Shown here one piece after another: positions 1 to 61,617 of a DNA stretch of 64,000 nucleotides. Source of the stretch: Chloroflexota bacterium. GTDB lineage: Bacteria; Chloroflexota; Dehalococcoidia; UBA2247; RBG-13-53-26. The notes beneath the pieces are model-generated. The model made no database searches, was not told the origin of the DNA, and saw only the letters and a program-made list of their open reading frames with translations. The stretch lies in NCBI GenBank assembly GCA_016875915.1, contig VGOM01000007.1, forward strand, positions 1-64,000, read 5' to 3'. Each line of letters begins with the position of its first letter. The stretch's first letter is position 1. The position numbers and the translations under genes are program-made.

Positions 1-12
1 GGCGACGGTGAA

Positions 13-177
13 GATGGCGAAGTACGAGTGTACGGCCTGTGGCTACATATACGATCCTGAGAAGGGCGATCCCGACGGCGGCATCCCACCGGGAACCCCC
101 TTCGAGAAGCTGCCGGACGACTGGACTTGCCCACAGTGCGGCGTGGGCAAGGACGAGTTCCAGAAGGTGAAGGACTA
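13..177 (+). CDS. Rubredoxin (53 aa, complete)
   Basis: Translation [52 protein letters not shown] has two CxxCG knuckles in the typical rubredoxin length and layout. ATG at 13, stop at 175-177. Confidence 0.9.
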
Positions 178-657
178 GCGGCTGAAGTCCAGGACACAGA
201 GTCCAGCGCCCTGGCAGATGCGGGACCGTGAGGTGTAGCGCAGCCTCTCATCGAACTCGGCCGCCCACGTGGAATACTCCGTGTCGCAGATGCGGGCGCC
301 AATCTTGCCAGACAGGGCCTCCCGGCCGGACTTGATCATGGCATCGTGCCAGGGGCAGCGGCTGATGCTGATGCGGAGTCCATCAGGGGAGCGCCGCTCC
401 ACCTGAAAGGCGAAGCCCTCCACACCCAGCTTGGCGGCGAAGCACTCCAGAAAGGCCTCCTCGCCTCCGGTCCGCTTCAGCATTCCCTTGAGCGTCCGGG
501 CCTGGATCTTGGGGAAGACCTTCCACACCTCATCATCAACGTCCAGGGCGGCGTCGAAGCCGAATCTCTCCTCCAGCTTCATGAACCACAGTCCATCGAT
601 GGCGGTGTAGCTGCGTCGGAAGAACTCGGCGGTCTGCTCCGGGCTCAACTCGGTCAT
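175..657 (-). CDS. Uncharacterised conserved-domain protein, a single copy of the domain that is tandemly duplicated in 57696..58865
   Basis: Start taken at MTELSPEQ inside the 188-aa ORF. Shares the pattern hhxDxxWFxxVxxRxGxDxAxxxDxxxW ... CxxhxxhxxxxxxhxxxC with both halves of the 389-aa protein at 57696..58865. Confidence 0.6.
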
Positions 658-785: not shown

Positions 786-1379
786 ATGCTTCCCATGCAA
801 AATCCCGAACCCGAACCGGAAGTCCGCGCGCCACGGAAGGGGCAGATGAGGATCAACCTGCGCGAGATCCTGATCATGGCCCTCATCTTCCTGGTGGTCT
901 TCGCAGCAGTGCAGTTCGGCGTGCAGAGCTTCAGGGTGGACGGTCCAAGCATGGAGCCATCCTTCACCGAGGGCGAGTTCATCATGGTGAACAAACTGAC
1001 CTACCACTTCAGCGACCCGCGGAGGGGCGACGTGATCATCTTCGACCCGCCATTCTCATCCAGCTACCCGTTCATCAAGAGAGTGGTCGGCCTGCCCGGC
1101 GAAACGGTGGAGATCAGGCACGGCGACATCTACATCAACGGCCGCCTGTTGAACGAGACGCCCACCATGGGCGATCCCAACAGGGACATAGGACCGATGC
1201 GAGTGGAGAAGGGCCACTACTTCGTCCTGGGCGACAACCGTGACAACAGCCGCGACTCCTCCGAGGGCTGGACGGTGCCGCGCGACAACATCATCGGCAG
1301 GAGCTGGATGGTCTACTGGCCCCTGTCGCACTTGGGCCTGTCGCCGGGCTACTCGTACACCCTGGGCACCGTGGCCTAG
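786..1379 (+). CDS. lepB: Signal peptidase I
   Basis: N-terminal TM helix, then SMEPS(F) box, GDVIIF, KRVVGLPGE, GDNRDNSRDS motifs. An alternative start at MRINL (846) is possible. Confidence 0.9.
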   Translation: MLPMQNPEPEPEVRAPRKGQMRINLREILIMALIFLVVFAAVQFGVQSFRVDGPSMEPSFTEGEFIMVNKLTYHFSDPRRGDVIIFDPPFSSSYPFIKRVVGLPGETVEIRHGDIYINGRLLNETPTMGDPNRDIGPMRVEKGHYFVLGDNRDNSRDSSEGWTVPRDNIIGRSWMVYWPLSHLGLSPGYSYTLGTVA

Positions 1380-12759: not shown

Positions 12760-13223
12760 GCCTGACCCTGCTGCTTCTGGTACCAGAGCAGCTCGATCAT
12801 GACACCACCGACGCTGTCGGTGCCCAGGTAGGCGAAGGCCATCCAGCCCATGTTGTGCCAGAAGACGGGCTCAACGCCCTTGCTCTTGAAGCGGGCCAGC
12901 CAGCCGTGGAAATCGTCCACCTCGAAGCCCAGATGGTGCAGTCCCTCTCCCTTGGCGGCGAGGAACTCGGTGTAGATGCTCTCGCCCTGCAGAGGTTGGA
13001 TCAGCTCGATCTGTACGGGGCCGGACTGGGCGAAGGCCACCTTGATGCTGGTGCTGGTGGGCCGGCCACGGAGGAGGGCGCCCTCGAACTTGACCTCCGG
13101 GATGATGCCGAAGGGACCGATGCCGAAGGTGGAGTGGTAGAAGGCAGCGGTCCTGTCGACGTCCCGGACCACGATGCCTACCTGACTCAGCGGGGGAAGA
13201 CTCACGGGTGATTGGTCTTTCAT
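12756..13223 (-). CDS. VOC (glyoxalase/bleomycin-resistance/extradiol dioxygenase fold) family protein, copy 2
   Basis: Start taken at MKDQSPVSL. Conserved GIVVRDVD...HHLGFEVDD motifs. Paralog of 15433..15909. 4-nt overlap with the downstream MoCo gene. Confidence 0.7.
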   Translation of the reverse strand: MKDQSPVSLPPLSQVGIVVRDVDRTAAFYHSTFGIGPFGIIPEVKFEGALLRGRPTSTSIKVAFAQSGPVQIELIQPLQGESIYTEFLAAKGEGLHHLGFEVDDFHGWLARFKSKGVEPVFWHNMGWMAFAYLGTDSVGGVMIELLWYQKQQGQA

Positions 13224-13225
13224 GT

Positions 13226-15436
13226 TCAGATCCTTTCTACCTGCACCAGGGTGGTGTTGGAGCAGAAGGCCCCTCCCGGCGAGTGCTCGTCCCGGGTGAG
13301 GACATTGCAGCACCCTCCCCGGTCAACCCCATTCTCGTCGGGGTCATACCAGGCCCCTTGAGGGATGTCGACCACTCCGGGCATGATCCGCTCCGTGACC
13401 CTGGCGGGAATGACCATCCGGCCCCTGTCGTTGAACACCCTGACCATGTCGCCATCATTGATGCCCCTGGCCTGAGCGTCGGCGGAGTTGACGGACACGG
13501 CCTGAGTCTGGAGCTCGCGCAGCCAGGGCAGATTGTCGTACTGGGAGTGGGCCCGCCTCATGATGTGCGTGGTGACAAGCTGCAGCGGGTATCTGGCAGC
13601 AAGGGGATCACGGCGGCTCTCCCAGGTCTCGATGTACCTAGGGATGGGCGGAATCCGGGGATCGTCCATGTCCGCCAGGCGCTGGGAGTAGATCTCGATC
13701 TTGCCGCTGGGGGTGGGGAAGGGATTGTTCTGCGGATCTTCGATCTGAGCCTTGAAGGCCACAAACGGTTCGGCCATCCTCAGCTTGTGGATGCCGTCCT
13801 TCTTGAAGACATCGTAGTCGGCGATGTCGCGGCTGCCCTTGACGATCTCCCGCAGCCAGCCGTCCTCCGTATGCTCGCTGTAGTCGGCGACGCCTAGCTT
13901 CGCGGCCAGATCCATGCCGATCTGCAGGTGTGATCTGGCTTCGCCCGGCGGCTCGGCGGCCTTGTTCATGTAGCCGTAGAATCCCGTAGCGCCGTCCAGG
14001 GCAATGTCGTTCTTCTCCAAGGAGTTGCAGGTGGGCAGGACCAGGTCGGCGAACCTGGCCCCGGGGGTCGTGAACTGCTCGAAGACGACGACGAACTCCA
14101 GGCTCTTCAGGGCCCGGACGGCCTTGTTGACGTCGAGGTACTGATTGGGGTAGTCGGTGTCCACCAGATAGAGCAGCTTGTAGTCGGCGGGGTAGCCGCC
14201 GGCCCTGCCCCTGAGGATGGCATCGGACATCTTGGCGGTGTTGACCTGGCCACGCCTCATGGCCACGCCGAAGGCGGGGAGGGCATTGCGGCGGGGCGGG
14301 GCGTCGGCCTCAACGGGGTTGCGGGGCGATTTCGGACCACGGCCCAGGCTGAAGTAGGCCGTGGGACCGGCGGTGGGCCAGGAGCGTCCACCGGAGCTCC
14401 CGCCGTGGACGCCGACATTGCCGGTCATGGCGGCCAGGACCATGGCCGCCCGGTGATACTGCTCGCCGTAGGCGGTCCGTCCCGGAGCGATGCCGGCGAT
14501 GAGGGCCGCCGGCGTGGCGGTGGCATATTCCCTGGCGAAAGCAGCGATGGTGGCGGCGGGCACGCCGGTGATGGCCTCTGCCCAGGCGGGCGTCTTGGCC
14601 ACACCGTCCTCCAGTCCGAGGACATAGTGCTTGAAGTGATTGAGGCCCACGGTGTAGGTATCCAGAAAGGCCTGGTCCTGCAGGTTCTCCTTGATGATGA
14701 CGTAGGCCATGGCGATGAGCATGGCGGCGTCCGTGCCGGGGACGATGGGGATCCATTGCTGGGAGAAGGTGGCGTTCGATTCGGTGTACCGGGGGTCGAC
14801 GGAGACAATCCTGATCCCGGCCTCCCCGGCCTGGGCCAGGTACCAGGCGGTGTTGGTGTTCTGAATGGTCACCGAGGGATTCCAGCCCCACATGATGATA
14901 AGGCGGGAGTTGAGCAGGTCATCGCGGGTGTTGCCGGTGTCCACGGTGCCGTAGGTAGCCAGCTCGGCGAACAGTCCCCCGTCGAAGGAGAAGGTGCCCC
15001 AGACATCCGAGCAGCCACCGATCATATTCAGCACCTTGTAGTGGCACATGGCGTTGTGCAGCACGGAGGTATCACCTCCGGACCACTTGAAGAGGATGGC
15101 GGCGGGACCGTAGGTCTCCCGGACCCGGTTCAGCTCCCGGGCCAGGGTGTCCAGGGCCTCTTCCCAGGAGATCCGGGTGAACCGGCCCTCTCCGCGCTGG
15201 CCGACTCTCTTCAGAGGGTGCAGCAGCCGGTCGGGGGCATACATCCGCTGGCGGTAGGCCCGGCCGCGAACGCAGGCCCGGAACTGGGGATCGGCGCCGT
15301 CATCGGTCTCGATCCTGGCCACGACGCCGTCTTTGACGTGGACCTTGAGGAGGCATGCCCCGCCGCAGTGGCTGGAGTGCGTGGAGTAGATCACCTCCTC
15401 CGAGGCGGGCTGCCGATGGTCATGGTGAGCGCTCAT
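13226..15436 (-). CDS. Molybdopterin (Mo/W-bisPGD) oxidoreductase catalytic subunit, DMSO-reductase family, cytoplasmic, copy 1
   Basis: 736 aa. N-terminal CGGACLLKVHVKDG [4Fe-4S] motif. Collinear paralog of 10552..12759 with long identical blocks (LLNSRLIIMWGW, DRGGC). Confidence 0.85.
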   Translation of the reverse strand: MSAHHDHRQPASEEVIYSTHSSHCGGACLLKVHVKDGVVARIETDDGADPQFRACVRGRAYRQRMYAPDRLLHPLKRVGQRGEGRFTRISWEEALDTLARELNRVRETYGPAAILFKWSGGDTSVLHNAMCHYKVLNMIGGCSDVWGTFSFDGGLFAELATYGTVDTGNTRDDLLNSRLIIMWGWNPSVTIQNTNTAWYLAQAGEAGIRIVSVDPRYTESNATFSQQWIPIVPGTDAAMLIAMAYVIIKENLQDQAFLDTYTVGLNHFKHYVLGLEDGVAKTPAWAEAITGVPAATIAAFAREYATATPAALIAGIAPGRTAYGEQYHRAAMVLAAMTGNVGVHGGSSGGRSWPTAGPTAYFSLGRGPKSPRNPVEADAPPRRNALPAFGVAMRRGQVNTAKMSDAILRGRAGGYPADYKLLYLVDTDYPNQYLDVNKAVRALKSLEFVVVFEQFTTPGARFADLVLPTCNSLEKNDIALDGATGFYGYMNKAAEPPGEARSHLQIGMDLAAKLGVADYSEHTEDGWLREIVKGSRDIADYDVFKKDGIHKLRMAEPFVAFKAQIEDPQNNPFPTPSGKIEIYSQRLADMDDPRIPPIPRYIETWESRRDPLAARYPLQLVTTHIMRRAHSQYDNLPWLRELQTQAVSVNSADAQARGINDGDMVRVFNDRGRMVIPARVTERIMPGVVDIPQGAWYDPDENGVDRGGCCNVLTRDEHSPGGAFCSNTTLVQVERI

Positions 15437-15909
15437 TTCTCATCCTTCCCGCGTTTGGCCAGATGAAACAGCTCGAAGGTGACGCCGCCGATTCTGTCGG
15501 TGTTCAGATAGGCGAAAGAGGCCAGTCCCGGAAGCACCTGGTGGAACACCGGCCGCACTTCCTCCCTGCCGAGCTGAGACAGAAGTCCATCGTAGTCGTC
15601 CACGCGGAAGCGGAGGTGGTGCAGGCCTTCACCCTTGTGCCTCAGGAACTCTGAATGGGGCGTATCGCCCTCCAGGACCTGGATCAGCTCGATCTCGATG
15701 GTTCCGGAGCGGGCGAAGGCCATCTTCAGCCGGCAGCGGCCCGGCCTGTCCCTGAAGATGAACCCCTGCAGGTCAACCTCACTGATCTGGAAGGGGCCCC
15801 AGCCGAAGAGGGCGGTGAGATGCTCGACGGCCCGGTCAACATCGTGAACGACAATGCCCACCTGTTCCACCGGAGGCAGCTTCACCGCAGGCTCCAGACT
15901 GTCCGACAT
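15433..15909 (-). CDS. VOC (glyoxalase fold) family protein, copy 1
   Basis: 158 aa. GIVVHDVD...EGLHHLRFRVDDYD motifs. Overlaps the downstream MoCo gene by 4 nt. Confidence 0.7.
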   Translation of the reverse strand: MSDSLEPAVKLPPVEQVGIVVHDVDRAVEHLTALFGWGPFQISEVDLQGFIFRDRPGRCRLKMAFARSGTIEIELIQVLEGDTPHSEFLRHKGEGLHHLRFRVDDYDGLLSQLGREEVRPVFHQVLPGLASFAYLNTDRIGGVTFELFHLAKRGKDEK

Positions 15910-15925
15910 CAGAGCACAACTCCAA

Positions 15926-16498
15926 CTAATGGGCGATACCGGCAGGCTCCGACTTGGGCTTGAAGATCACGGCCGGCCGGATCTTGGTCTTGTAGGTGAA
16001 TCCCACGGCATGGTGGGCCCCGCCATACTTGGCCTGGAGATCCTCCAGCGGCCCGGCATCCAGGGCCCGCATGGGGCAGCCAGCGACGCAGATGGGCGCT
16101 TTGCCCTCGGCCCAGCGCTCGAGGCAGAAGTCGCACTTCTCCATCTTGGCGTTTTCTTCGGCGCCGAACTGAGGGGCCTTGTAGGGGCAGACCTCGAGGC
16201 AGCGCTGGCAGGAGTCCTTGCCCAGGCAGAGCCCCCGGTCGACGACCACTATGCCATCCTCATCCCGCTTGGTCATGGCGTCCACGGGGCAGGCGGGGAT
16301 GCAGGCCGGGTGGGTGCAGTGGTAGCAGGCAGCAGCCATGAAGGCCACGAAGGGGTGCGGATACTTGCCCTTCTCTATGGTGGTCACCCGCATCCAGCTG
16401 GCCGGGCCAGCGGGGACATCATGCCAGTCCTTGCAGGCCACCACGCAGGCGTAGCAGCCGGTGCATCTGGTTTGGTCAAAGTAGAAAGCCAACTGCAT
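15926..16498 (-). CDS. DmsB-type 4x[4Fe-4S] ferredoxin electron-transfer subunit
   Basis: 190 aa. Four Cys clusters (CTGCYACVVAC, CYHCTHPACIPAC, CQRCLEVC, CDFC...CVAGCP) in the DmsB/PsrB arrangement. AGGAGG RBS. Confidence 0.85.
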   Translation of the reverse strand: MQLAFYFDQTRCTGCYACVVACKDWHDVPAGPASWMRVTTIEKGKYPHPFVAFMAAACYHCTHPACIPACPVDAMTKRDEDGIVVVDRGLCLGKDSCQRCLEVCPYKAPQFGAEENAKMEKCDFCLERWAEGKAPICVAGCPMRALDAGPLEDLQAKYGGAHHAVGFTYKTKIRPAVIFKPKSEPAGIAH

Positions 16499-50053: not shown

Positions 50054-50854
50054 TTGAAGATCGTGCGTTTTGGGGCCGGGGGCAGGGCCAGGTACGGTGT
50101 GCTAGAAGGAGATACCATCCGCGGCCTCCGGGGCAGCCCCTTCGCCGACTCCGGAGTCGGCCTTGGCTCCCTCGAGTTCGACGGCAAGACCCTCGATGCG
50201 GGCAAGGCGAAGCTGCTCGCTCCCTGCACTCCATCCAAGCTGGTGTGCCTGGGGGTGAACTACCGCAGCCACGCTGAAGAGACAGGACTGCCCACGCCCC
50301 CGCTGCCCCTGATCTTCCTCAAGCCGTCCACGGCAGTGATCGGCCCGGAGGAGAAGATCGTCCTGCCCCCGCTGCCCAAGCGCCGCGTGGACTACGAAGC
50401 AGAGCTGGGAGTGGTCATCGGGAGAAGGGCCAGAAACGTGGCCAGGGAGGAGTTCGGCCGGTACGTGCTGGGCTACACCTGTGTGAACGACGTCACGGAG
50501 CGCTACGCTCAGCGGGACGACGGCCAGTGGACAAGGGCCAAGAGCTTCGACACCTTCGCCCCCATCGGGCCCTGGATCGAGACCGACATCAGCCCGCATG
50601 ACCTGAAGATCGAGAGTTGCCTCAACGGCGAGGTCCGCCAGTCAGCCCGGACCAGTGATCTGATATTCGGCGTGGCGGAGCTGGTGAGCTTCATCTCCGG
50701 CATCATGACGCTGCTGCCGGGCGATGTGATCGCCACAGGCACGCCCTCGGGCATCGGGCGGATGAATGCCGGCGATGTGATCGAGATCAGGATCGAGGGG
50801 ATCGGCACGCTGAGGAACTTCGTGGTGGACCAGTCTCAAGGAGAAGCGGCATGA
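50054..50854 (+). CDS. Fumarylacetoacetate hydrolase (FAH) family protein
   Basis: TTG start after GGGGGAG RBS. FAH-fold motifs (KLVCLGVNYRSHAEE, YEAELGVVIG, GDVIATGTPSGIG). Confidence 0.8.
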   Translation: MKIVRFGAGGRARYGVLEGDTIRGLRGSPFADSGVGLGSLEFDGKTLDAGKAKLLAPCTPSKLVCLGVNYRSHAEETGLPTPPLPLIFLKPSTAVIGPEEKIVLPPLPKRRVDYEAELGVVIGRRARNVAREEFGRYVLGYTCVNDVTERYAQRDDGQWTRAKSFDTFAPIGPWIETDISPHDLKIESCLNGEVRQSARTSDLIFGVAELVSFISGIMTLLPGDVIATGTPSGIGRMNAGDVIEIRIEGIGTLRNFVVDQSQGEAA

Positions 50855-52833
50855 GCAGACTGAAGCACCTCTTCCAGCCGGTGAAGATAGGCACCATGGA
50901 GATCCAGAACCGGATCGTGATGTCCGCCATGGACCCCGGCTTCGGCATTGACGACGACGGGTGCGTGACGGAACAGCTCACCGCGTTCCTGGTGGAGAGG
51001 GCCCGGAGCGGCCCAGGGATGATCGTCACCGGCGCGACTCCGGTGCACCCCTCGGGGACAGCAGATCCGAACACCATCAAGATGGTGCACCTGTGGGAGG
51101 ACAGGGTGCTGCCCAGTCTGGAAGCCATGGTGAAGGCGGTGCACCGCTACGACGTGAGGTTCGGGGCCCAGTTGAACCATGGAGGGCTGGCCCATATCCC
51201 TCAGGAGGCGGTGTGCGCTTCGGTGATCCCGGAACTGACCCAGCTCGGACTGCCTGTGAGGGAGGCCACCAGGGATGACCTGCAGGAGTATGTCGAGGCC
51301 TTCGCCGCCGGGGCAGAGAAGTCGGTGAGGGCGGGCTTCGACTTCATCGAGATCCATGGTGGTCACGGCTATCTGATCAACACCTTCCTCACTCCCTACT
51401 ACAACCGGAGGATGGACGAGTACGGCGGCAGCTTCGACAACAGGATCAAGTTCCTCCTGGAGATCATCCGGGCCATCAGGGAGAGGATCGGCCGCGGCGT
51501 TCCCCTCGGGGTGCGGCTGAACGGCGACGATTTCATTCCACAGGGAGGCTGGAGGCTGCCGGAGGTCTGCCGGCTGGCTCCCATCCTGGAGAGGGAGGCG
51601 GTGGACTACATCAACATATCGGCCGGGGCCACCTCCATGGGCACGTTGCACTACACCATTATGCCCATGTACCAGGAGCAGGGTGTCTTCGCCCCCTTCA
51701 GCGAGGAGGTGAAGAGATACGTCTCCATCCCAGTGATCCTCACGGGACGGATCAAGAGCCCGGTAGTGGCGGAAGGGATCATCAAGGAGGGCAGGGCCGA
51801 CCTGGTGGTCATGTCCCGGGCCCAGATCGCCGATCCCGATCTGGTAGAGAAGGCCAGACAGGGCCGCCTGGCTGACATACGGCCCTGCCTGGCGGAGTGC
51901 CTGGGGTGCATCGAGGGGATCCTGCGCTACGGCGAGGCAAGCTGCGCGGTGAACGCCAGACTGGGCAGGGAGTACCTCCTGAAGGAGATCGAGGGGGAGA
52001 AGAAGGCCTCGGCGAAGAGGGTGCTGGTGGCCGGGGCAGGGTGCGCCGGGCTGGAAGCGGCCCGAAGGGCGGCCTTCGCCGGGCACAAGGTGATTCTCTG
52101 CGAGAGCCGGAGTTGGATCGGCGGCCAACTCAGGCTGGCGGCCATGATGCCCGGGAGACAGGAGATCGGGGACATCATCCCCTGGTACGAGAGGCAGTTG
52201 CACAACCTAGGGGTGGAGATACGGCTGAACACCGCCGTGGATGAAGGCCTACTGGGCGACATTCGGCCCGACGTGCTGGTGATAGCCTGCGGCAGCCTGC
52301 CGGAGGTGTCTCTGGGGTTCATCGACGGACTGGGGAATATCAGGGATATCGAGCTGGTCATGGCCGACGAACTCATTGAGGAAGGACGGCTGACGGGCGC
52401 GGCCGTGCTGGTCATCGGCGGGGATCAGATCGGGCTGCAGGTGGCCGACCTTCTGTCACGGGACGGCAAGACCGTGCACGTGGTGGAGAAGGGGGACCAC
52501 TTCGGGCAGAAGATGGCCTCCAACGACAGGCGCTTCCTCATGGGCCGGCTGATCGCCCAAGGGGTGAAGAGGCACAAGAACGTGGAGGGCATCGAGGTCC
52601 TGCCCACCGACGAAGTGTGGATGACCAGCGGAGGCAGGCGCGAGAGGCTGCCAGCGATCGAGACCATTGTTCTGACCAGCCAGAGACGCCCCAACGTATT
52701 CCTGGAAGAGGCGGCCAAGCGGAAGGGCATCGAGACTCACATCGTCGGCGACTCCGCGGGCGTCGCCGCTGAGGGCCAGGGCACCATCATGGCGGCGATC
52801 ACCGCCGGATACGATGTGGGCCGACAGATCTAG
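50851..52833 (+). CDS. OYE-family NADH:flavin oxidoreductase fused to an FAD/NAD(P)-binding domain (BaiCD/BaiH-like), paralog 2 of 3
   Basis: 660 aa, collinear with 1443..3407 (IQNRIVMSAM, HGGHGYLIN, 4-Cys patch, VLVAGAGCAGLEAA). Start overlaps the FAH stop. Confidence 0.85.
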   Translation: MSRLKHLFQPVKIGTMEIQNRIVMSAMDPGFGIDDDGCVTEQLTAFLVERARSGPGMIVTGATPVHPSGTADPNTIKMVHLWEDRVLPSLEAMVKAVHRYDVRFGAQLNHGGLAHIPQEAVCASVIPELTQLGLPVREATRDDLQEYVEAFAAGAEKSVRAGFDFIEIHGGHGYLINTFLTPYYNRRMDEYGGSFDNRIKFLLEIIRAIRERIGRGVPLGVRLNGDDFIPQGGWRLPEVCRLAPILEREAVDYINISAGATSMGTLHYTIMPMYQEQGVFAPFSEEVKRYVSIPVILTGRIKSPVVAEGIIKEGRADLVVMSRAQIADPDLVEKARQGRLADIRPCLAECLGCIEGILRYGEASCAVNARLGREYLLKEIEGEKKASAKRVLVAGAGCAGLEAARRAAFAGHKVILCESRSWIGGQLRLAAMMPGRQEIGDIIPWYERQLHNLGVEIRLNTAVDEGLLGDIRPDVLVIACGSLPEVSLGFIDGLGNIRDIELVMADELIEEGRLTGAAVLVIGGDQIGLQVADLLSRDGKTVHVVEKGDHFGQKMASNDRRFLMGRLIAQGVKRHKNVEGIEVLPTDEVWMTSGGRRERLPAIETIVLTSQRRPNVFLEEAAKRKGIETHIVGDSAGVAAEGQGTIMAAITAGYDVGRQI

Positions 52834-52848: not shown

Positions 52849-53379
52849 ATGACATCCCCAAACCCAGCAGAACGCGCCTTCCCCACGGACAGCGAATTCG
52901 AGTCGCTCTTCGGGGCGCAGATCGCCGCGGCCACCAGGATGCTGGCCGGGCATGCCGGAGGCATCTGCCAGTCGTGCCGCGGGGAGTGCTGCCGCAGGAT
53001 CGAGTGTGAGTTCTACTCAGACCGGTTCGACTGCTGCCCCATACACGGGTACCGTCCGGTGAAGTGCCGCTTCTACTACTGCGAGAAGATCCTGGAGAAC
53101 GAGACGCTGAGCGACGAGGCACGCTGGCTGCTCAACCGGCCGGCACGGGAGCTGTCTGACCGCCTCAGAGAGGACCAGGGCCTGCGGGTATTCATCGAGC
53201 CGCCAGTCAGAATCGGGGGCCGAAGCTGGCTGGCCCGGTTCGGCATCGAGGACGAAGTGGCCGGGATAGTCAGAGCCGTGAGCAAGGGCGCCCTGAGTGC
53301 CGAAGCCGGCACGGCCGGGCTGGCCGAACTGGTCCGGCAGTGCAGAGAGCGGCCGTCCGGCTCAGTGGACGATCGATGA
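52849..53379 (+). CDS. YkgJ/UPF0153-like Cys-rich putative Fe-S/zinc protein
   Basis: CQSCRGECCRR...C...CC...YRPVKCRFYYC pattern (CxxCxxCC ... RPxxCRxF). Family recalled from memory. Confidence 0.5.
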   Translation: MTSPNPAERAFPTDSEFESLFGAQIAAATRMLAGHAGGICQSCRGECCRRIECEFYSDRFDCCPIHGYRPVKCRFYYCEKILENETLSDEARWLLNRPARELSDRLREDQGLRVFIEPPVRIGGRSWLARFGIEDEVAGIVRAVSKGALSAEAGTAGLAELVRQCRERPSGSVDDR

Positions 53380-54408
53380 AGGCCCGGCGATGGTTTCCGG
53401 GATGAACTCCGGCGGCCTGACCAGCTCCATCGTCATAGCGCCCGGCGGGCACTTGAGCACACAGACACCGCAGCCGACGCACTTCTCGGCATTGATGACC
53501 GCCTTCGGCGCGTCAGGGCCATGGACCTTCTTCATCTCGATGCCATCGAAGAAGCACCAGGAGACGCAATCCCCGCAGCCGTCGCAGAGATCATTGTCCA
53601 CTTCGACCAGGAAGCGGCTGGCGGCCAGGGCCTGGGGCACCTTGTCCGCCCTGATGATGGGGTTGAGCACCAGGCAGGCACACTTGTCGCAGTAGCAGAT
53701 GAACTCCAGGGCCTCCATCGGCGAAACGTTGGCCACGGTGGGCACCAGGCCCGCCTTGCCGGCCTTCATGGACACGGCAATGGCCTCCCCCGCCGAGACC
53801 TTCCGTCCGCTGCCCCGATAGAGGTCGTATTCCGCCCTCCGGCCGAACTGGGTGCAGACCTCGGTGGGGTGATCACAGGCCTTGGCGCCCACGCGGCAGC
53901 AGCAGTGACGCACCGTGATCAGCTCCTTGTGGGCCTCGATGATGTCCGCGATGCTCTCGTGAGGCAACAGCTTCACATCCGGCGGGGTGGACTTGAGGAT
54001 GGGGGCCACCCTGAGCACGGCATTTCCCAGGGTGGTCAGTGAGTCGGCTATCTCGCGCCACCAGCCGCTCTCATAGAAGTCCATCCACAGCCTGTCGATG
54101 CCCGGCGGGACGTGCTGGGGCAGGCTGGCCAGGATGTTGTCATGCAGCGTGCCCAGGTCCCGGGGATAGCGGAACCCCTTCCGTGATGAAACCACCAGAC
54201 CTCTGCGGGCCAGATTGAGCACCCTGTCCGCCACCGCCCTCTCATCCATGCCGAACTTGGCCGCCAGATCGGCATTGGCCGCCGGCAACTCCAGGAGAAA
54301 CCGGGCCTCTTCAGGGGTCATGGCCTTCTCCAGTATCCGGTGCAGCAGCTCCGAGTCGCGGTGTCCACCCCTCTCCGCCAGCTTCACATAGGCCTCATCA
54401 GTCTTCAT
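53362..54408 (-). CDS. Fe-S protein with C-terminal 2x[4Fe-4S] ferredoxin domain
   Basis: C-terminal CDGCGDCVSWC and CVGCGVCVLKCP motifs plus additional Cys pairs (HCCCRVG, CYCDKCAC). N-terminal about 150 aa is unassigned. Confidence 0.6.
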   Translation of the reverse strand: MKTDEAYVKLAERGGHRDSELLHRILEKAMTPEEARFLLELPAANADLAAKFGMDERAVADRVLNLARRGLVVSSRKGFRYPRDLGTLHDNILASLPQHVPPGIDRLWMDFYESGWWREIADSLTTLGNAVLRVAPILKSTPPDVKLLPHESIADIIEAHKELITVRHCCCRVGAKACDHPTEVCTQFGRRAEYDLYRGSGRKVSAGEAIAVSMKAGKAGLVPTVANVSPMEALEFICYCDKCACLVLNPIIRADKVPQALAASRFLVEVDNDLCDGCGDCVSWCFFDGIEMKKVHGPDAPKAVINAEKCVGCGVCVLKCPPGAMTMELVRPPEFIPETIAGPSSIVH

Positions 54409-54447: not shown

Positions 54448-54969
54448 TCACTTCCCGGGCGGCGCGAACATACTCCTGGTGATCCTCAGGCTCTTGGTCT
54501 CGTTCCGGTCCCAGACCTCCTCGAAGACGCGGTCGTAGCCGGTCTGCTGGATCTTCCATTCCCCGCCGACCTTGACGTACTCGTCATGATAGAAGGACGC
54601 CCCCCTCAGAGCGGTGTTGCTCTGAGTGACGATGACATAGTCGTGCAAAGCCCAGATCCCCCTGGCCGTGGTCTTGCCGGTGATCTCGATCTCGGGGTGA
54701 TGTCCGTGGTGCATGCTGATCATGGTCGGCCCCAGCCCTTCCCTGAGGAACTTCATGATGGCCTCCCGGCCCTGAAAGCTGTACTTGCCGCCGGAGTAGC
54801 TGGTGGTGGCATCCTCGGCGAAGCACTCCACCAACTCGTCCCACAGCTTGCTGTCCAGGCAGCGGAAGTAGCGGTACTTCAGGCGCTTGATGGCCTCTAT
54901 GTCGTCGCGAACGGCCTGCGCCCGCTCCAGCTTCTTCAACCGTGCTTCTATCTTCGAGGCCTCAGCCAT
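54448..54969 (-). CDS. SnoaL/NTF2-like protein resembling bile-acid 7-alpha-dehydratase BaiE
   Basis: 173 aa with DIEAIKRLKYRYFRCLDSKLWDEL, TTSYSGGK, ISMHHGHHPEIEI, GGEWKIQQTGY, which matches BaiE motifs as recalled from memory. Confidence 0.6.
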   Translation of the reverse strand: MAEASKIEARLKKLERAQAVRDDIEAIKRLKYRYFRCLDSKLWDELVECFAEDATTSYSGGKYSFQGREAIMKFLREGLGPTMISMHHGHHPEIEITGKTTARGIWALHDYVIVTQSNTALRGASFYHDEYVKVGGEWKIQQTGYDRVFEEVWDRNETKSLRITRSMFAPPGK

Positions 54970-55033: not shown

Positions 55034-56641
55034 CTACTTCTTGCCCGCTTGGGCAGCGTGACGGGCGGCGATGTAGCCGAAGATCATGCTCTTGCCCTGC
55101 GCCGCGCCGCTGTCGTAGTGGTGGCCCAGGGGCAGCATGGCCTGGGTATTGCTGGTGCAATACAGGCCAGGTATCACCCGACCGCGCACATCGATGACCT
55201 GAGCCTGAATATCGGTGACCAGTCCGCCCAGATTCCCCGCCGTGGTCAGGCCGAGGCGCACGCCATAGAAGGGCGGCTTCTCCAGCGCGCCAAGCACGGC
55301 ACCAGCGCCGCGTCCGGGGAAGACGAACTCTCCCCACTGGAGATCGAAGGTGCTCTCTCCCCGGCGGAAGTCGGGGTCCTTTCTCTCTCTGGCAAACCTA
55401 TTGAACCGCTCCACGGTCTCCACGAAGTTGTCCGCCGGAATGCCCAGCGCCCCGGCCAGCTCCGGGAGCGTCTGGCCGCGCTTGATCCAGTCGGCCACGT
55501 CCGTGCCCCTCTTCAAAGTCATCACAGGCATGAAATCCCGGAAGGCCTGGTCGCAGATCCAGAAGATGGGCCAGTTGGCGAATTCCCCCCTGATCCGGTC
55601 GTACTCCAGGAAGGCCCGGCCCATGTCAGGATAGAAGCTCTCGTTGCAGCAGCGCCGGCCATAGCGATTGACCATGATCATGTTGGGATACCCATAGATG
55701 AAAGGCCGGTAGAAGGGCTTGCCCCCCTCGACCACCTCGCCGGGGAGATTGAAGCCGGGCTGAAAGATGCTGTGGTCCATCAGGGCCAGCGCCGCGCCGA
55801 CCTCCATGCCCATGATATGGCCATCGCCTTCGTTGGAGGGAGCGGTGTACGCGTGAAGCGGCGGCGAGTAGATGAATCGCCGGTTCATCTCCTCGTTCCA
55901 CTCGAAGCCTCCCGTGGCCAGCAGGACGCCCCGTCGGCCCCTGACGAAGAAGTCGCGCCCGTTGCGCTCCGCGCGGAGTCCGACCACCCTGCCGTCGTCG
56001 ACGATCAACTCCTGACCGCGAACGCCCGTGATTATGTCAACTCCACGCTGGGCACAGGCCAGTGTCAGAGCGCCGATGAGGGCCCGGCCCTGAACCCAGG
56101 GCGGGCGGGGCCCGATGAGGTACTTCACCGGGTCCTTGCGCACTCTGGCCACGATGGGGTGGGCCTTCTCCGCCTCCTCCAGTACGGGGGGCATGATCTG
56201 GGGATCGGGCCAGATCTTCCGGCCCATGCACTTCCCGCCGGGGACATCGGCGCAGTACTCGGTGCGGCTGGCATCGGTCTCAGCAGTCATCTTCAAGGGT
56301 GTGTGTTCCTCGATGTAGCGGAGCATCACCGGGCCGTTGTCCAGGTAGGCAGCCAGGAGCGGCTCATCATGGTGCCCCATGCTCACTCCGCGGACGTAGG
56401 TCAGCGCGTCCTCCCGGGAGTCGTGGATGCCGGCTGCCGGCATGTGGTGATTGAACGGTATCCAGATCACCCCTCCGGAAAGGGCCGTGCCTCCGCCGAG
56501 GACATCGGCTTTCTCCAGCACCACCGTCTTCAGTCCCAAGTCATGGCCCACGATGGCGGCGGTCAGCCCGCCGCTGCTGGAGCCGACGGCCACCAGGTCA
56601 ACTTCTAGGTCCCAGCTCTGGGGAACCCTGTTCTTGATCAT
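55034..56641 (-). CDS. FAD-dependent oxidoreductase (3-ketosteroid-delta1-dehydrogenase / fumarate-reductase flavoprotein family; BaiJ-like)
   Basis: Start at MIKNRVP with GGAGGT RBS. VDLVAVGSSSGGLTAAI dinucleotide fold. C-terminal FAD_binding_2-type closure (AAGNLGG). Confidence 0.75.
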   Translation of the reverse strand: MIKNRVPQSWDLEVDLVAVGSSSGGLTAAIVGHDLGLKTVVLEKADVLGGGTALSGGVIWIPFNHHMPAAGIHDSREDALTYVRGVSMGHHDEPLLAAYLDNGPVMLRYIEEHTPLKMTAETDASRTEYCADVPGGKCMGRKIWPDPQIMPPVLEEAEKAHPIVARVRKDPVKYLIGPRPPWVQGRALIGALTLACAQRGVDIITGVRGQELIVDDGRVVGLRAERNGRDFFVRGRRGVLLATGGFEWNEEMNRRFIYSPPLHAYTAPSNEGDGHIMGMEVGAALALMDHSIFQPGFNLPGEVVEGGKPFYRPFIYGYPNMIMVNRYGRRCCNESFYPDMGRAFLEYDRIRGEFANWPIFWICDQAFRDFMPVMTLKRGTDVADWIKRGQTLPELAGALGIPADNFVETVERFNRFARERKDPDFRRGESTFDLQWGEFVFPGRGAGAVLGALEKPPFYGVRLGLTTAGNLGGLVTDIQAQVIDVRGRVIPGLYCTSNTQAMLPLGHHYDSGAAQGKSMIFGYIAARHAAQAGKK

Positions 56642-56835: not shown

Positions 56836-57603
56836 GTGTACCCATCGTTTTCTCTGGCCAACAGAGTGGCCATCGTCACCGGTTCCGGCCGGGGCATTGG
56901 CAAGGCCACCGCCCTGGGCATGGCTCAGGCCGGTGCCGATGTGGCAATCCTGGCCCGCACCGCCGCCGATGTGGAGAAGACCGCAGGGGAGGTGCGCGCA
57001 CTGGGCAGGCGGGCCCTGGCCATTCCCACGGACGTCAGGATCAGCGAGCAGATACTGGCCATGGTGGAGGCGACACTGAAGGAGTTCGGGCGGATCGACG
57101 TACTGGTGAACAACGCCGGCGCCGCCTTCCTCGCGCCGACTCTCAGCCTCAGTGAGGGCGGCTGGGACGCCCTGATCCGGGAGAACCTGAAGACCCCCTT
57201 CCTGTGCAGCAAGGCGGTGGCCCCGGCCATGATCAAGCAGGGCAAGGGCAGCATCATCAACATCTCCTCCACAGAGGGGGTGCGCTCAGCGGCGACCACC
57301 GCGGCTTATGCCGCGGCCAAGGCAGGGGTGATCAACCTCACCCGCAGTCTGGCGGTGGAGTGGGCTCAGCACGGGATCAGAGTGAACGCCGTCTCCCCCG
57401 GATTCATCGAGAATCCGGGGTTGCCCGAGGCGCTGCAGGCGAACACAGGGCTTCAGGAGAAGCTGTCCAGGGTGCCGTTGGCCCGCATGGGCAGGCAGGA
57501 GGATATCGTGGGTGGCGTGATCTACCTGGCCTCAGATGCCGCCGCCTACGTCACCGGGGCCAACCTGATCATCGACGGCGGCCTGACCAGCGTGCTGGGC
57601 TGA
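56836..57603 (+). CDS. Short-chain dehydrogenase/reductase (SDR)
   Basis: GTG start after GGGAGGTG. TGSGRGIG cofactor motif, NNAG, catalytic YAAAK. Confidence 0.85.
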   Translation: MYPSFSLANRVAIVTGSGRGIGKATALGMAQAGADVAILARTAADVEKTAGEVRALGRRALAIPTDVRISEQILAMVEATLKEFGRIDVLVNNAGAAFLAPTLSLSEGGWDALIRENLKTPFLCSKAVAPAMIKQGKGSIINISSTEGVRSAATTAAYAAAKAGVINLTRSLAVEWAQHGIRVNAVSPGFIENPGLPEALQANTGLQEKLSRVPLARMGRQEDIVGGVIYLASDAAAYVTGANLIIDGGLTSVLG

Positions 57604-57695: not shown

Positions 57696-58865
57696 CTATT
57701 GCTGGAGCTTGAACTCCCAGCGGCAGGCGATGTCTTCGGGGCTCTTCCGCGGCGGTAGTACGAGGGGGGTCACAGTCACCTTGGGGTTGACCAGGTACTT
57801 CTCGATGACCGGCTTCTCCAGGTGGTGACACATGGGGATGATCCTCTCTGGCTCCGCCTTCTCGAAGTAGTCCAGGGTGCGGCACTTCATCACCGTCATG
57901 ACCACGTGGTTGGGGCTGCGGACATCGTACTCGGCCGGGTACAGGCCGACGGTGTTGTCCAGAGGCAACTGGGTGACCTTGAGGGAGTCGAGCACCGTCT
58001 CCAGCTTGATGTTGGCTATCTTGGCGTACCTGGGATTGACCTTCTCTCCCACGATCATCCACGATGCCAGCTCGCACTCATTGGCGGCATCGGAACCATA
58101 CCGGGATTTCACCGCGTCGTAGTAGCCGCCGCTCATGATGATCCAGGCATACTGGTAGGACTGCATCAGCTTGAGAAGGAAGTCCTTGGAGAAGTTGGCA
58201 TGGGTGAGATTGAGATAGAAGGGACCGCTGTTGTCGTTCAGCTCTGGGATCTGATCCGATGGCCGCTCGTCGACCACCTCGGCCTTCTTCCTGATCTTGG
58301 TTCCCCTGGGGACTTTGATCTTGTACTCCCACTGACAGGCAATGTCCTCGCCGCTGCTGCGCGGAGGGAGCTTCAACGCCTTGACCTGGATATTGGGATT
58401 GACGATGTACTTCTTGATGATCTGGGGCTCATTCACCTGGCACATCGGCCCGATCCGGCCCGGCTCCTCCCGCTCACACCACTCCAGGGCAACGCACTTC
58501 CGCACCGTGACGATGGCATGGTTCTCGTTCTTGATATCGTAGTGAACCGGGAAGATGCCGCCCATGGTGTTGTCCAGAGGCAACTGGAGCAGCTTCAGTG
58601 AGTCCACAACGCTGTTCAGGGGGATGTTGGCCAGCTTGGCGTAGCGGGGATTGCAGCGCTCGGCCACCCTCAGCCACATCTCCAGGTCGCACTCCCAAGC
58701 CACCTTGTCGCCCCATCTCTTCTTCACCACGTCGAACCAGGCGGCATCCATGCGCAGCCAGGCCCACTGCCAGACGCCGATCAGTTTGACCAGGAACTCC
58801 TTTGAGAAATCCGAGAATCTCAGTCCGGGATTGAACGGGCCACTGAGGTCATTGAGCTCTGCCAT
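57696..58865 (-). CDS. Tandem-duplicated uncharacterised-domain protein (2 x about 180 aa)
   Basis: The two halves align residue by residue (ELNDLSGPFNPGLRFSDFSKEFLVKL... vs ELNDNSGPFYLNLTHANFSKDFLLKL...; ...NPRYAKLANI vs NPRYAKIANI; ...PPRSSGEDIACQWEYK vs PPRKSPEDIACRWEFK). Same domain as 175..657. Confidence 0.65.
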   Translation of the reverse strand: MAELNDLSGPFNPGLRFSDFSKEFLVKLIGVWQWAWLRMDAAWFDVVKKRWGDKVAWECDLEMWLRVAERCNPRYAKLANIPLNSVVDSLKLLQLPLDNTMGGIFPVHYDIKNENHAIVTVRKCVALEWCEREEPGRIGPMCQVNEPQIIKKYIVNPNIQVKALKLPPRSSGEDIACQWEYKIKVPRGTKIRKKAEVVDERPSDQIPELNDNSGPFYLNLTHANFSKDFLLKLMQSYQYAWIIMSGGYYDAVKSRYGSDAANECELASWMIVGEKVNPRYAKIANIKLETVLDSLKVTQLPLDNTVGLYPAEYDVRSPNHVVMTVMKCRTLDYFEKAEPERIIPMCHHLEKPVIEKYLVNPKVTVTPLVLPPRKSPEDIACRWEFKLQQ

Positions 58866-58942: not shown

Positions 58943-60877
58943 CTAGATCTGGGCGGCCACCCTGGCCGCCTGGTAGGCCACCTCGGCGGCATCCCGCGGC
59001 CGGACGCAGTCGCCGACGCTGTATAGTTCCGCCGCCACGCCCTCAAGCTCCTGGGCCAGCTTGTTCTCCGACTTCATGCCCACCGCCAGAATGACCGTAT
59101 CGGCCGGCAGGGTATGGATGTCCCCTCCCATGGAGAAGATCACCGCTTTGTCGGTGATCTCCATGACAGTGGAGTTCAGATAGAGCGGAACCCGCAGGTC
59201 GAGCAGCCTTCTGGCCAGCGTCTTGAAGCTGAGCTTCTCCAGCTTGATGCCGTCCTCTCCCAGGCCGGCGCGGGTGACCAGGGAGACCTCCCGACCCTGC
59301 TCAGCCAGCCAGATGGCCACCTCCATGCCGATGAACCGTCCGCCGACCACGATGACCTTGCCCTCGGCCTGGACCTTGCCCTCGATGACGTCATGCCCCT
59401 GAACGACACTGCCGCCGGTGCCGCCGGGCACTCTGAGCCACACGGGCACCGCACCTGTGGCCACCACCACGGCATCCGGCCTCACCTCAGCGACCAGCCC
59501 CCTGGTGACCTCGGTGTTCAGGGTGATATTGACGCTGTACCGGTCCAGAAAGCGCTTGAGATACTGGGTGAACGCCGCATAGCCCTCTTTGCCGGGTGTG
59601 GCACAGGCCACATTCCACTGGCCGCCAAGCTGCGCTTTCTTCTCGTACAGTGAGACCCGATGTCCCCGCTGCGCCAGGAAGAGGGCCGCCTGCATGCCAC
59701 CCAGCCCACCGCCGACGACCATGACCCGCTTCGGCGCCTTAGCTGGAGGGGGAGGGTACCTGGCCTCCCTGTAGAGATAGGGATTCACAGAACAAGAACC
59801 CGGCCCGGCCTCAGGGTCGGTCTTGAGGCAGTTGTTGCAGTAAATGCAGCGGCGGACGTCCTCCACGGGGCCCCTATGGATCTTCTCCGGAAGCTCGGGG
59901 TCCGCCAGAAGAGGCCGGCCCATAGCCACGAAATCAGCCCTGCCCCCGGCAATGACCTCCTCGGCCAGCTCAGCGTCTATCTTGCCGGCGGCGATCACCG
60001 GCACCTGGACCGCTTTCTTGATGCGCTCCGCCATGGACACCATGGGGCCTTTGGGGTAGGGGTAACAGGGTATGCTCAGGGTGGACCAGTACTCCAGTCC
60101 CCCGGAGACGCTGATGGCGTCCGCGCCTGCTGCTTCCAGTATCCGGGCCTGCTCCGCGGCCTCGTCAAGGGTGACCCCGCCCTCCACGTCGTCACTGGCG
60201 TTGACTCTAACCCACAAGGGATACTCCCTGCCCACCTCCTGCCGGATCCGCTCCAGGACCATCCGGGCGAAGCGGGCCCGGTTCTCCACGGAGCCTCCGT
60301 ACTGATCGGTGCGGCGGTTGGTGACGGGGGACATGAAGCTGCTGATCAGGCAGCCATGGCAGGCATGAAGCTCAATGGCGTCGGCACCGGCCTGTCTGGC
60401 CCGGCGCGCCGCCTGGCCGAAATCCTCCATGTATCGCTCGATATCACTGCTGCTGAGCTCATGGTAGGGGTTCCTGGTCTCCTTCAGCCAGGGCATCATG
60501 GACGGGACCAGTATGGAGAACTCCTCAGGCACCACCTCGGAGTACAGGAGAAGCATGCCGATATGCATCAGTTGGATGCAGAAGGCGGCGCCGGCCTCAT
60601 GGACCGCATCGGCCACCCGGCTCCAGTCCGGCACGTGACCATCGTCACACAGGGCCATGGTGTACGGGAGTGCGGAGTCCCGGCTCACTGCGGCGAACTG
60701 CGGAGTGACCATGGCCGCGCCACCCGCCGCCCGGGTGCGGTAGTAGCTGACCAGTCGGTCGGTGACCCTGCCCTCCGCGTCCGCCAACTGGGTGCCCATG
60801 GCGGGCATGATAAGCCTGTTCTTCAACTGGAGCGAGCCTATCCTGCCCGGCTGGAACAGTGAGGGAAAACGCTTCAT
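58943..60877 (-). CDS. OYE-family NADH:flavin oxidoreductase fused to an FAD/NAD(P)-binding domain (BaiCD/BaiH-like), paralog 3 of 3
   Basis: 644 aa: LKNRLIMPAM, HACHGCLIS, CIYCNNC Cys patch, VMVVGGGLGGMQAA. Confidence 0.85.
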   Translation of the reverse strand: MKRFPSLFQPGRIGSLQLKNRLIMPAMGTQLADAEGRVTDRLVSYYRTRAAGGAAMVTPQFAAVSRDSALPYTMALCDDGHVPDWSRVADAVHEAGAAFCIQLMHIGMLLLYSEVVPEEFSILVPSMMPWLKETRNPYHELSSSDIERYMEDFGQAARRARQAGADAIELHACHGCLISSFMSPVTNRRTDQYGGSVENRARFARMVLERIRQEVGREYPLWVRVNASDDVEGGVTLDEAAEQARILEAAGADAISVSGGLEYWSTLSIPCYPYPKGPMVSMAERIKKAVQVPVIAAGKIDAELAEEVIAGGRADFVAMGRPLLADPELPEKIHRGPVEDVRRCIYCNNCLKTDPEAGPGSCSVNPYLYREARYPPPPAKAPKRVMVVGGGLGGMQAALFLAQRGHRVSLYEKKAQLGGQWNVACATPGKEGYAAFTQYLKRFLDRYSVNITLNTEVTRGLVAEVRPDAVVVATGAVPVWLRVPGGTGGSVVQGHDVIEGKVQAEGKVIVVGGRFIGMEVAIWLAEQGREVSLVTRAGLGEDGIKLEKLSFKTLARRLLDLRVPLYLNSTVMEITDKAVIFSMGGDIHTLPADTVILAVGMKSENKLAQELEGVAAELYSVGDCVRPRDAAEVAYQAARVAAQI

Positions 60878-61077: not shown

Positions 61078-61617
61078 CTACTTCACGATACTGATGATCT
61101 GCTTGAACACGGGCCCTTCGGCCACCCGGAGAAGCTCGAAGAGGGCGGTCTCCACGCTGGTGATGCTGGCCCCGGCGTCCTTCATCTTCTGCAGTCCGAT
61201 GGCCTTGTTCTCCGCCCTCCTTGAAGAGACCGCGTCAGCCAAGACATGCACCTCATAGCCGGAGGCGACCAGATCGACGGTGGTCTGGTAGAGACAAACG
61301 TGAGCTTCGATGCCCGACAGCAGCACCTGGCACCGCTGCAGCCCCGAGAGCTCCCTGGAGAAGGCCTCGTCGCCGCAGCAACTGAAGCTCAGTTTGGGGA
61401 TACGCCGCGCGCCGGGCACCAGGTCGGCGATCTCGGGTACGGTCGGCCCCAGACCCCTGGGGTTCTGCTCGGTGAGCAGCAGGGGTAGGCCCAGAGCCTG
61501 GGCTCCCTTGATGATCTTCTGCACGTTCTCGAAGAGCAACTCCCTGCAGTGCATCGACTGGGCCAGCTTGCCCTGCATGTCGATGACCACCAGGACCGCC
61601 TTGTCGGTGGTGAGCAT
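61078..61617 (-). CDS. Isochorismatase-family cysteine hydrolase
   Basis: VLVVIDMQ, catalytic Cys in GIEAHVCL, about 180 aa. Confidence 0.8.
   Translation of the reverse strand: MLTTDKAVLVVIDMQGKLAQSMHCRELLFENVQKIIKGAQALGLPLLLTEQNPRGLGPTVPEIADLVPGARRIPKLSFSCCGDEAFSRELSGLQRCQVLLSGIEAHVCLYQTTVDLVASGYEVHVLADAVSSRRAENKAIGLQKMKDAGASITSVETALFELLRVAEGPVFKQIISIVK

Follow-up and report, generated by a model that had tools for sequence, protein, structure and literature searches.

The 389-residue protein encoded at positions 57696..58865 on the minus strand of a 64,000-nucleotide stretch of Chloroflexota (Dehalococcoidia) DNA (contig VGOM01000007.1; the whole stretch is referred to as the window) very probably consists, judged from its predicted structure, of two fused DUF6125 domains of the V4R / H-NOX / TRAPP-Bet3 fold. 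The gene, hereafter the double-DUF6125 gene, lies beside a homologue of old yellow enzyme (OYE) in a cluster of oxidoreductase genes, and a single-domain relative is encoded at 175..657 of the window. We tentatively favor a role, to which we assign somewhat less than an even chance, as a fused pseudo-dimer: the protein would bind an alicyclic, isoprenoid or steroid-like alcohol or ketone of low solubility and present this ligand to the neighboring oxidoreductases.

The open reading frame begins with an ATG codon, 6 nt 5' of which is found AAAGGGGG, and ends with a stop codon at 57696..57698. BLASTP aligned residues 1-184 to residues 206-389 (52% identity, 72% similarity, a single gap, E 1e-73), and the Smith-Waterman score between the halves was 521 compared to 30.6±4.6 in shuffles (n = 500), results confirming the tandem duplication proposed when the DNA was first read from its letters alone (the sequence-only reading). 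The aligned N-terminal unit (residues 1-185) is encoded at 58311..58865 and the C-terminal unit (residues 206-389) at 57699..58250, both on the minus strand. The units are separated by a linker of residues 186-205 (P-R-G-T-K-I-R-K-K-A-E-V-V-D-E-R-P-S-D-Q; 58251..58310, minus strand) that is partly conserved among tandem homologues at P186, G188 and R192. The halves are 63.5% identical at the nucleotide level over aligned codons which, together with their alignment scores, indicates that the repeat is real and old and not an assembly artefact. A recent duplication is ruled out by the same nucleotide identity, and N-terminal and C-terminal halves form separate conserved groups. The best match of an N-terminal half was another N-terminal half, and that of a C-terminal half another C-terminal half, in 70 of 72 cases each; therefore, the fusion or duplication was a single event predating divergence of the family.

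Both halves matched Pfam family DUF6125 (PF19620) with 54.7 bits in two stretches, above the gathering threshold of 27 bits. The single copy scored 48.2 bits with DUF6125 and 36.5 bits with ATC_hydrolase (PF14196, threshold 28.1 bits), such that the earlier guess of a domain that is ATC-hydrolase-like or of a DUF family proved correct. The tandem protein gave no match to ATC_hydrolase at E≤0.01; faint matches were obtained with some tandem homologues. No NCBIfam model matched either DUF6125 protein of the window, and nothing meaningful was retrieved from PDB sequences, whether the query was the tandem protein, the single copy or the family profile. DUF6125 is named in no paper of the literature searched, and none of the papers naming thiazoline-4-carboxylic acid hydrolase treats the present context. 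A set of 5.8 billion proteins yielded 130 homologues, mostly two-domain proteins of 385-400 residues from Chloroflexota/Dehalococcoidia metagenomes, of which the full-length examples share the start motif M-x-E-L-x-D; the same set holds single-domain relatives of 215-245 residues that are 55-62% identical to one half. Proteins with 76% identity already carry the NCBI name 'DUF6125 family protein', and the closest genome match (91%), 'Chloroflexi bacterium RBG_13_53_26', has an identical gene order. A profile search of 1.84 billion cluster representatives found 748 proteins at E≤1e-3, mostly single-domain proteins of ∼188 residues, with approximately 20 two-domain proteins among the best 150. 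Fusions to output or enzyme domains were rejected, no second Pfam domain being found in the 10 longest of these 150 representatives. The Pfam model describes one domain of ∼164 residues, whereas the protein of the window has two such domains in a fixed fusion, joined by a conserved linker. The Pfam family of the double-DUF6125 gene is catalogued but unstudied; what is new here is the assignment of a fold to the tandem subfamily, a putative metal site that has decayed asymmetrically, the organization in arrays and the neighborhood centered on short-chain dehydrogenases/reductases (SDR) described below.

The AlphaFold2 model of the tandem protein, obtained with 45 homologues, had a mean predicted local distance difference test score (pLDDT) of 94.5 and a predicted template modeling score (pTM) of 0.91. 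In each half the model shows a pair of long helices followed by a short helix, a beta hairpin, two more helices and a last pair of strands. The N-terminal helices are predicted to pack against an antiparallel sheet of four strands into which two helices are inserted. Foldseek searches with the tandem model returned almost only H-NOX, Bet3/TPC6, PoxR and MopR (probability 0.9-1.0, target TM≤0.60). The model of the single copy (pLDDT 92) gave cleaner scores with DmpR (9.9), PoxR (9.5), BcsD (9.3), Bet3 (8.9), the V4R protein MJ1460 (8.0), Thor-TRAPPC3 (7.8) and H-NOX (6.6). These matches place both proteins structurally in the V4R / H-NOX / TRAPPC3 fold. The Pfam models V4R (PF02830) and HNOB (PF07700) gave no match to the window proteins at E≤0.01. 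The fold encloses phenols in DmpR, PoxR and MopR, heme in H-NOX and palmitate in Bet3 and, to our knowledge, a hydrophobic ligand in every solved relative. Dimers of the V4R/TRAPPC3 fold have hydrophobic-ligand cavities, with zinc-ligand positions that vary (PMC10933270), and the sensory domains of DmpR form an interlocked dimer (PMC7264223). Iterative searches, and a cluster of three Cys residues in common, had previously tied ATC_hydrolase to V4R and HNOB (Galperin 2018, PMC5847659). Since the two halves form one confidently predicted unit, the tandem protein looks like a covalently fused version of the usual dimers of the fold, and the pseudo-dimer suggested earlier is consistent with the two-domain model.

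Conservation was evaluated in 72 two-domain proteins split into halves and in 42 single-domain relatives. C124 was conserved in 100% of N-terminal halves, 98% of single-domain proteins and 57% of C-terminal halves; the corresponding values were 100%, 98% and 61% for E131, 99%, 98% and 57% for C142, and 100%, 100% and 92% for C177. The codons of these putative metal ligands in the N-terminal unit are at 58494..58496 (C124), 58473..58475 (E131), 58440..58442 (C142) and 58335..58337 (C177). The window protein retains all four positions in both halves, those of the C-terminal unit being C328 (57882..57884), E335 (57861..57863), C346 (57828..57830) and C381 (57723..57725), all on the minus strand. 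The sequence-only reading of two conserved Cys residues per unit was therefore incomplete: the tandem units have three Cys and one Glu, and the single copy has four invariant Cys (C101, C124, C148 and C154) together with W103 and H104. In DmpR the ligands of the structural zinc site (C151, E172, C177 and C185) follow the same Cys-Glu-Cys-Cys order (PMC7264223), and Thor-TRAPPC3 uses four Cys (PMC10933270). Among the positions conserved in all three domain classes were E3, D6, G9, S21, K22, Q33, W36, W64, D88, K91, Q94, D98, N156, P168 and W179, and R169 was present in 100% of N-terminal halves and single-domain proteins and in 72% of C-terminal halves. Since approximately 40% of the homologues have lost the putative metal ligands in the C-terminal half, the pattern suggests that the principal functional site is probably in the N-terminal half. 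Heme binding of the H-NOX type was considered and rejected as unlikely, because the protein lacks the Y-x-S-x-R motif and no His was conserved at 85% or above in any domain class.

Neighboring genes were compared to evaluate the functional partnership with OYE-type ene-reductases that the sequence-only reading had proposed from the proximity of both DUF6125 genes to OYE-FAD paralogues. The comparison covered 76 species-representative loci and several metagenome contigs, with OYE homologues detected within 3 kb by tblastn. An OYE was found at 7 of 11 loci with tandem proteins of at least 60% identity, at none of the 9 with 45-60% identity, at none of the 5 below 45%, and at 2 of the 49 remaining loci, which lacked a full-length two-domain match and were mostly single-domain. 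In six of the seven positive loci, and also in the JGI locus L001, the OYE gene lay immediately upstream or with no more than a KstD-like gene in between; in L031, the seventh, the distance was ∼3 kb, with a single-domain DUF6125 gene and two SDR genes intervening. Adjacency was also found with more distant OYEs in L031/L032 (in the order OYE, DUF6125, SDR, SDR, double DUF6125) and in L049. Pfam families were counted for genes within three positions of the tandem genes (n = 115), for genes immediately adjacent at the other, mostly single-domain loci (n = 84), and for control genes more than 6 kb away (n = 150). SDR neighbors numbered 12, 7 and 2, respectively, a significant excess for the tandem (Fisher test, p = 0.001) and other loci (p = 0.012), and were often co-directional with DUF6125 genes at gaps of 6-55 bp in many lineages. 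OYE neighbors numbered 6, 1 and 2 (p = 0.07 for 6/115 versus 2/150). FAD_binding_2 was counted 15 times in tandem loci, six of these being OYE proteins, and was not among the families listed for the other loci or the control. DUF6125 itself was counted 9 and 6 times in tandem and other loci, and aldehyde ferredoxin oxidoreductase (AFOR) 3-4 and 2 times, neither being among the families listed for the control. TetR (4) was listed for the other loci only, and cytochrome P450 for the other loci (3) and the control (2) but not for the tandem loci. Across the family, SDR was thus the neighbor with the most consistent enrichment, followed in frequency by KstD-like FAD_binding_2, additional DUF6125, AFOR and P450 genes. 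An AFOR gene was directly upstream in L023 and L026, and a P450 gene in the distant members L005 (gammaproteobacterial) and L073 (myxococcal). Because OYE adjacency recurs in L031/L032 and L049 but not across the family, there is some bias toward OYE that is limited by clade. Thus, the link with OYE holds for the clade of the window and a few others, and does not extend to the family as a whole, for which the partner is an SDR or, in broader terms, an oxidoreductase whose substrates are hydrophobic alcohols, aldehydes or ketones.

The family profile detected two or more DUF6125 domains in 55 of 86 loci and, in L015, L020, L031, L052, L054 and L055, four to six domains in succession. Such sets of domains, together with the confident two-domain model, fit the obligate dimers and heterodimers of the fold, such as the interlocked DmpR dimer and Bet3-TPC6. 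The runs in L052 (9212..12966), L054 (5362..8555) and L055 (904..3880) comprise five or six domains of ∼190 residues, mostly as separate genes; those of L052 and L055 come after an SDR gene, which in L052 is itself preceded by a formate-dehydrogenase-like molybdoenzyme gene. Two-domain relatives with 21-43% identity and no Pfam match are encoded directly after cytochrome P450 in L005 (Halioglobus metagenome-assembled genome, 6620..13650) and L073 (Myxococcota metagenome-assembled genome, 1168..4406). The P450 operon of L005 also contains an alkyl-sulfatase-like gene, DUF3604, a 3-beta-HSD-type epimerase, a TonB receptor and TetR, and the P450 of L073 is fused to a ferredoxin domain.

In the role that we tentatively favor, the protein would be a cytoplasmic, stand-alone pair of fused DUF6125 domains with zinc putatively bound by the Cys-Glu-Cys-Cys set and a hydrophobic-ligand cavity in the predicted fold, the N-terminal half providing the main ligand site. 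The ligand would be held for, or handed to, the SDR for oxidation of alcohol to ketone, the KstD-like flavoprotein for conversion of ketone to enone, and the OYE-FAD ene-reductases for reduction of the enone. The SnoaL_4 protein of the cluster may be a further partner in the window, as may AFOR or P450 in other lineages. The protein would thus serve as a substrate-binding accessory subunit and not as a sensor with an output of its own. Several observations weigh against this role. The conserved E3, D6, S21, K22, Q33, D88, K91, Q94, D98, N156 and R169 would fit an active site, or the binding of a polar cofactor or handle, better than a simple hydrophobic pocket, and the spacing of the Cys and Glu residues is unlike that of DmpR. 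The neighborhoods are heterogeneous, with no oxidoreductase neighbor in L018 and L021, and the control genes were a small set drawn from the same loci. Furthermore, ATC hydrolase, the only biochemically studied relative known to us, is an enzyme.

The immediate neighbor of the double-DUF6125 gene is OYE3 (58943..60877, minus strand), an Fe-S flavoenzyme with Oxidored_FMN and Pyr_redox_2 domains (Pfam) encoded 77 bp upstream on the same strand, for which the best NCBIfam match was BaiCD at 511 bits (cutoff 825). The gap holds no promoter-like or terminator-like site, the order of the two genes is the same in L001 and L011-L014, and they are probably co-transcribed. An isochorismatase-like gene is located further upstream (61078..61617, minus strand). 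On the other side, the SDR gene (56836..57603, plus strand; Pfam adh_short_C2, 216 bits) is convergent with the double-DUF6125 gene across a 92-bp gap and divergent from the gene encoding a KstD-like FAD_binding_2 flavoprotein (Pfam) of 535 residues (55034..56641, minus strand). The best NCBIfam models for the latter were 3-ketosteroid-delta-1-dehydrogenase and 4-oxocyclohexanecarboxylate 2-dehydrogenase, both below cutoff. Its start is likelier to be the ATG at 56641 (MIKNRV...) than the TTG at 56725 (563 residues), since orthologues of 535 residues (L001) align from the former. It is followed by genes for a SnoaL_4 (NTF2-like) protein (54448..54969, minus strand; Pfam, 114 bits) that is syntenic in L001, L011-L013 and L017, and for a 348-residue protein (53362..54408, minus strand) with a C-terminal 2×[4Fe-4S] region matching Fer4_7 and related Pfam models and ∼260 N-terminal residues without a Pfam match. 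In the orthologous loci (L001, L011-L013 and L017) the 2×[4Fe-4S] gene always follows FAD_binding_2 and SnoaL_4, and the protein is probably a dedicated electron carrier or acceptor for the KstD-like flavoprotein. Together, the enzyme classes of the cluster are those used on cyclic ketones and enones.

An FAA-hydrolase gene (50054..50854, plus strand), convergent with the 2×[4Fe-4S] gene, precedes OYE2 (50851..52833, plus strand; Pfam), the second OYE-FAD paralogue of the cluster, which is syntenic in L011 and L013. Directly after OYE2 is an open reading frame for a Cys-rich protein of 176 residues (52849..53379, plus strand) with a dense Cys core, CQSCRGECCRRIECEF...DCCPIHGYRPVKCRFYYCEK, and a 57%-identical orthologue in the same place in L013. 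It matched no Pfam or NCBIfam model and is probably associated with OYE2 as a small protein that binds a metal or an Fe-S center. Membership in DUF6125 was rejected, since a profile search of all open reading frames of the window yielded the two known genes and no third member. The window contains three full-length OYE-FMN paralogues with FAD/NAD(P) domains (1443..3407, 50851..52833 and 58943..60877), all nearest to the BaiCD, mycofactocin-type FadH/OYE and bilirubin-reductase models although far below cutoffs, which points to a large expansion of this enzyme class in the lineage. An unrelated respiratory or catabolic module at 10552..16498 (minus strand) comprises two paralogous molybdopterin oxidoreductases in tandem (735 and 736 residues), a glyoxalase-like gene and a Fer4_11 subunit.

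The gene at 175..657 (minus strand) encodes a single-domain paralogue of the DUF6125/ATC_hydrolase type (Pfam) with 160 residues. It had been read as the same unit as the tandem repeats, which was not borne out: identity to a tandem unit was ∼17% (BLASTP, E 0.004). Comparison of the family alignments with hhalign gave a probability of 90.6% (E 1.3e-6), with C101 of the single copy aligned to C328 of the tandem protein. Only this comparison and the Pfam DUF6125 match reveal a distant relative, homologous to the tandem protein at the level of family or superfamily only. OYE1 (1443..3407, plus strand; Pfam) is 786 bp from the single copy and on the opposite strand, with a signal-peptidase gene (786..1379, plus strand) in between. 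In the single-copy orthologues (window 1..657 and L087-L090), a divergent signal peptidase S26 gene is always on one side, and on the other a gene for a Flavin_Reduct-rubredoxin fusion followed by those for SufBD, SufC, TusA, DsrE, NifU and cysteine desulfurase; a tie of the single copy to Fe-S or sulfur trafficking is possible. In the more distant genomes L089 and L090, genes for a regulator, a protease and a Zip transporter intervene and the OYE is at a distance of 4-5 kb, and the proximity of the single copy to OYE therefore looks like residual synteny.

That OYE proximity in general reflects chance or inherited synteny with no functional link is a substantial possibility, although one that we doubt. 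Adjacency is found mainly in one clade of close orthologues, being absent from the more divergent tandem groups and from 47 of the 49 other loci, and the enrichment over the control was not significant. Proximity is also easily reached with three OYE paralogues in 64 kb, and unrelated genes intervene between the single copy and its OYE. Against chance are the direct upstream position of OYE3 on the same strand, the preservation of the OYE-DUF6125 order down to ∼69% identity, and the independent recurrence in L031/L032 and L049 with OYEs that are 39-53% identical to those of the window.

The main rival to a ligand-presenting role is that the protein is itself a pathway enzyme catalyzing isomerization, hydration or hydrolytic ring opening of ketone or enone intermediates, with an active N-terminal half and a C-terminal half serving as a degenerate structural partner. 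We consider this possible but unlikely. It draws on the analogy to ATC hydrolase, which opens a thiazoline ring, on the ATC_hydrolase match of the single copy and on the link of that family to V4R (PMC5847659). The polar residues conserved in all domain classes, with R169 in N-terminal halves and single-domain proteins, point in the same direction, as does retention of the Cys/Glu site in 99-100% of N-terminal halves compared to ∼57-61% of C-terminal halves, a pattern typical of pseudo-dimeric enzymes with one active half. The gene is also placed tightly within catabolic operons. However, every solved protein with this fold serves in binding, sensing or scaffolding, and four to six paralogous DUF6125 genes per operon would be odd for an enzyme of a single step. 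The varied partners (SDR, AFOR, P450 and OYE) speak against one fixed reaction, the tandem protein is below the ATC_hydrolase threshold, and no gene for a carbamoyl-cysteine amidohydrolase is nearby.

It is improbable that the protein is a stand-alone ligand sensor regulating transcription or enzyme activity through protein contacts in the manner of the V4R domains of DmpR/XylR or of stand-alone H-NOX proteins. The nearest solved structures are indeed the sensor domains of DmpR, PoxR and MopR and H-NOX, and TetR adjoins single-domain members (4 of 84 neighbors). However, no output domain was fused in the 10 longest of the best 150 representatives, and no kinase, cyclase or sigma-54 activator was adjacent in the window or among the commonest neighbor families. 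Furthermore, the gene is inside enzyme operons with gaps of 6-77 bp, and arrays of several genes are untypical of sensors. An iron site, rubredoxin-like or a small Fe-S cluster, for electron transfer with the neighboring flavoenzymes, AFOR or P450 is more improbable still: every neighbor is a redox enzyme and several depend on small electron carriers, the single copy is conserved beside a flavin-reductase/rubredoxin fusion and Fe-S assembly genes, and sets of four Cys or of three Cys plus Glu are conserved, but the solved relatives have in the corresponding region a zinc described as structural (PMC7264223, PMC10933270), ∼40% of C-terminal halves are without the Cys/Glu site, and the cluster already encodes a dedicated 2×[4Fe-4S] protein.

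If the ligand-presenting role is correct, the V4R / H-NOX / Bet3 fold gains a catabolic, non-regulatory use. Annotations as DUF6125 or, loosely, as 'ATC hydrolase' are given a structural context. Non-dehalogenating Dehalococcoidia are abundant in sediments and aquifers and contain many OYE, SDR and KstD-like paralogues. Since the family is small (748 representatives), travels with these enzymes and has a hydrophobic-pocket fold, the identity of the bound ligand would provide a practical handle on their substrates. A broader and speculative extension, which we regard as unlikely, is that anaerobic Dehalococcoidia and certain Proteobacteria use DUF6125 proteins as an unrecognized class of dedicated partner subunits for SDR, KstD-like, OYE, AFOR and P450 enzymes. 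As either zinc-stabilized pseudo-dimeric substrate carriers or a new type of enzyme with the V4R/Bet3 fold, they would be needed in sediments and aquifers to degrade alicyclic, isoprenoid or steroid-like compounds of low solubility.

Among known systems, the Bai-type and steroid A-ring sets (the OYE-FAD enzymes BaiCD/BaiH, the SDR BaiA, the SnoaL-like BaiE, and KstD) comprise the same enzyme classes as the window cluster, although all NCBIfam scores of the latter, with BaiCD, 3-ketosteroid-delta-1-dehydrogenase and 4-oxocyclohexanecarboxylate 2-dehydrogenase as best matches, are far below the family cutoffs. We know of no DUF6125 protein in the Bai or Kst systems. ATC_hydrolase (L-2-amino-thiazoline-4-carboxylate hydrolase, AtcB of Pseudomonas) is a sequence family related to DUF6125, and its Cys cluster is common to V4R (PMC5847659). 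No N-carbamoyl-L-cysteine amidohydrolase or carbamoylase of the ATC pathway is encoded beside either window gene or among the commonest neighbor families; unlike that pathway, the neighbors of DUF6125 are oxidoreductases acting on carbonyl compounds. The H-NOX heme sensors have a proximal His and the Y-x-S-x-R motif, neither of which is conserved in DUF6125. The V4R domains of DmpR, PoxR and MopR have no detectable sequence similarity to the window protein, in which the dimer is predicted to be contained in one chain. The sigma-54 activators XylR and DmpR additionally carry AAA+ and DNA-binding output domains, whereas the window protein has two DUF6125 units only. Finally, the TRAPP proteins Bet3/TPC6 (TRAPPC3/C6) and the archaeal TRAPPC3-like proteins are vesicle-tethering scaffolds of eukaryotes and Asgard archaea, in contrast to the window protein which is bacterial and encoded in catabolic operons.

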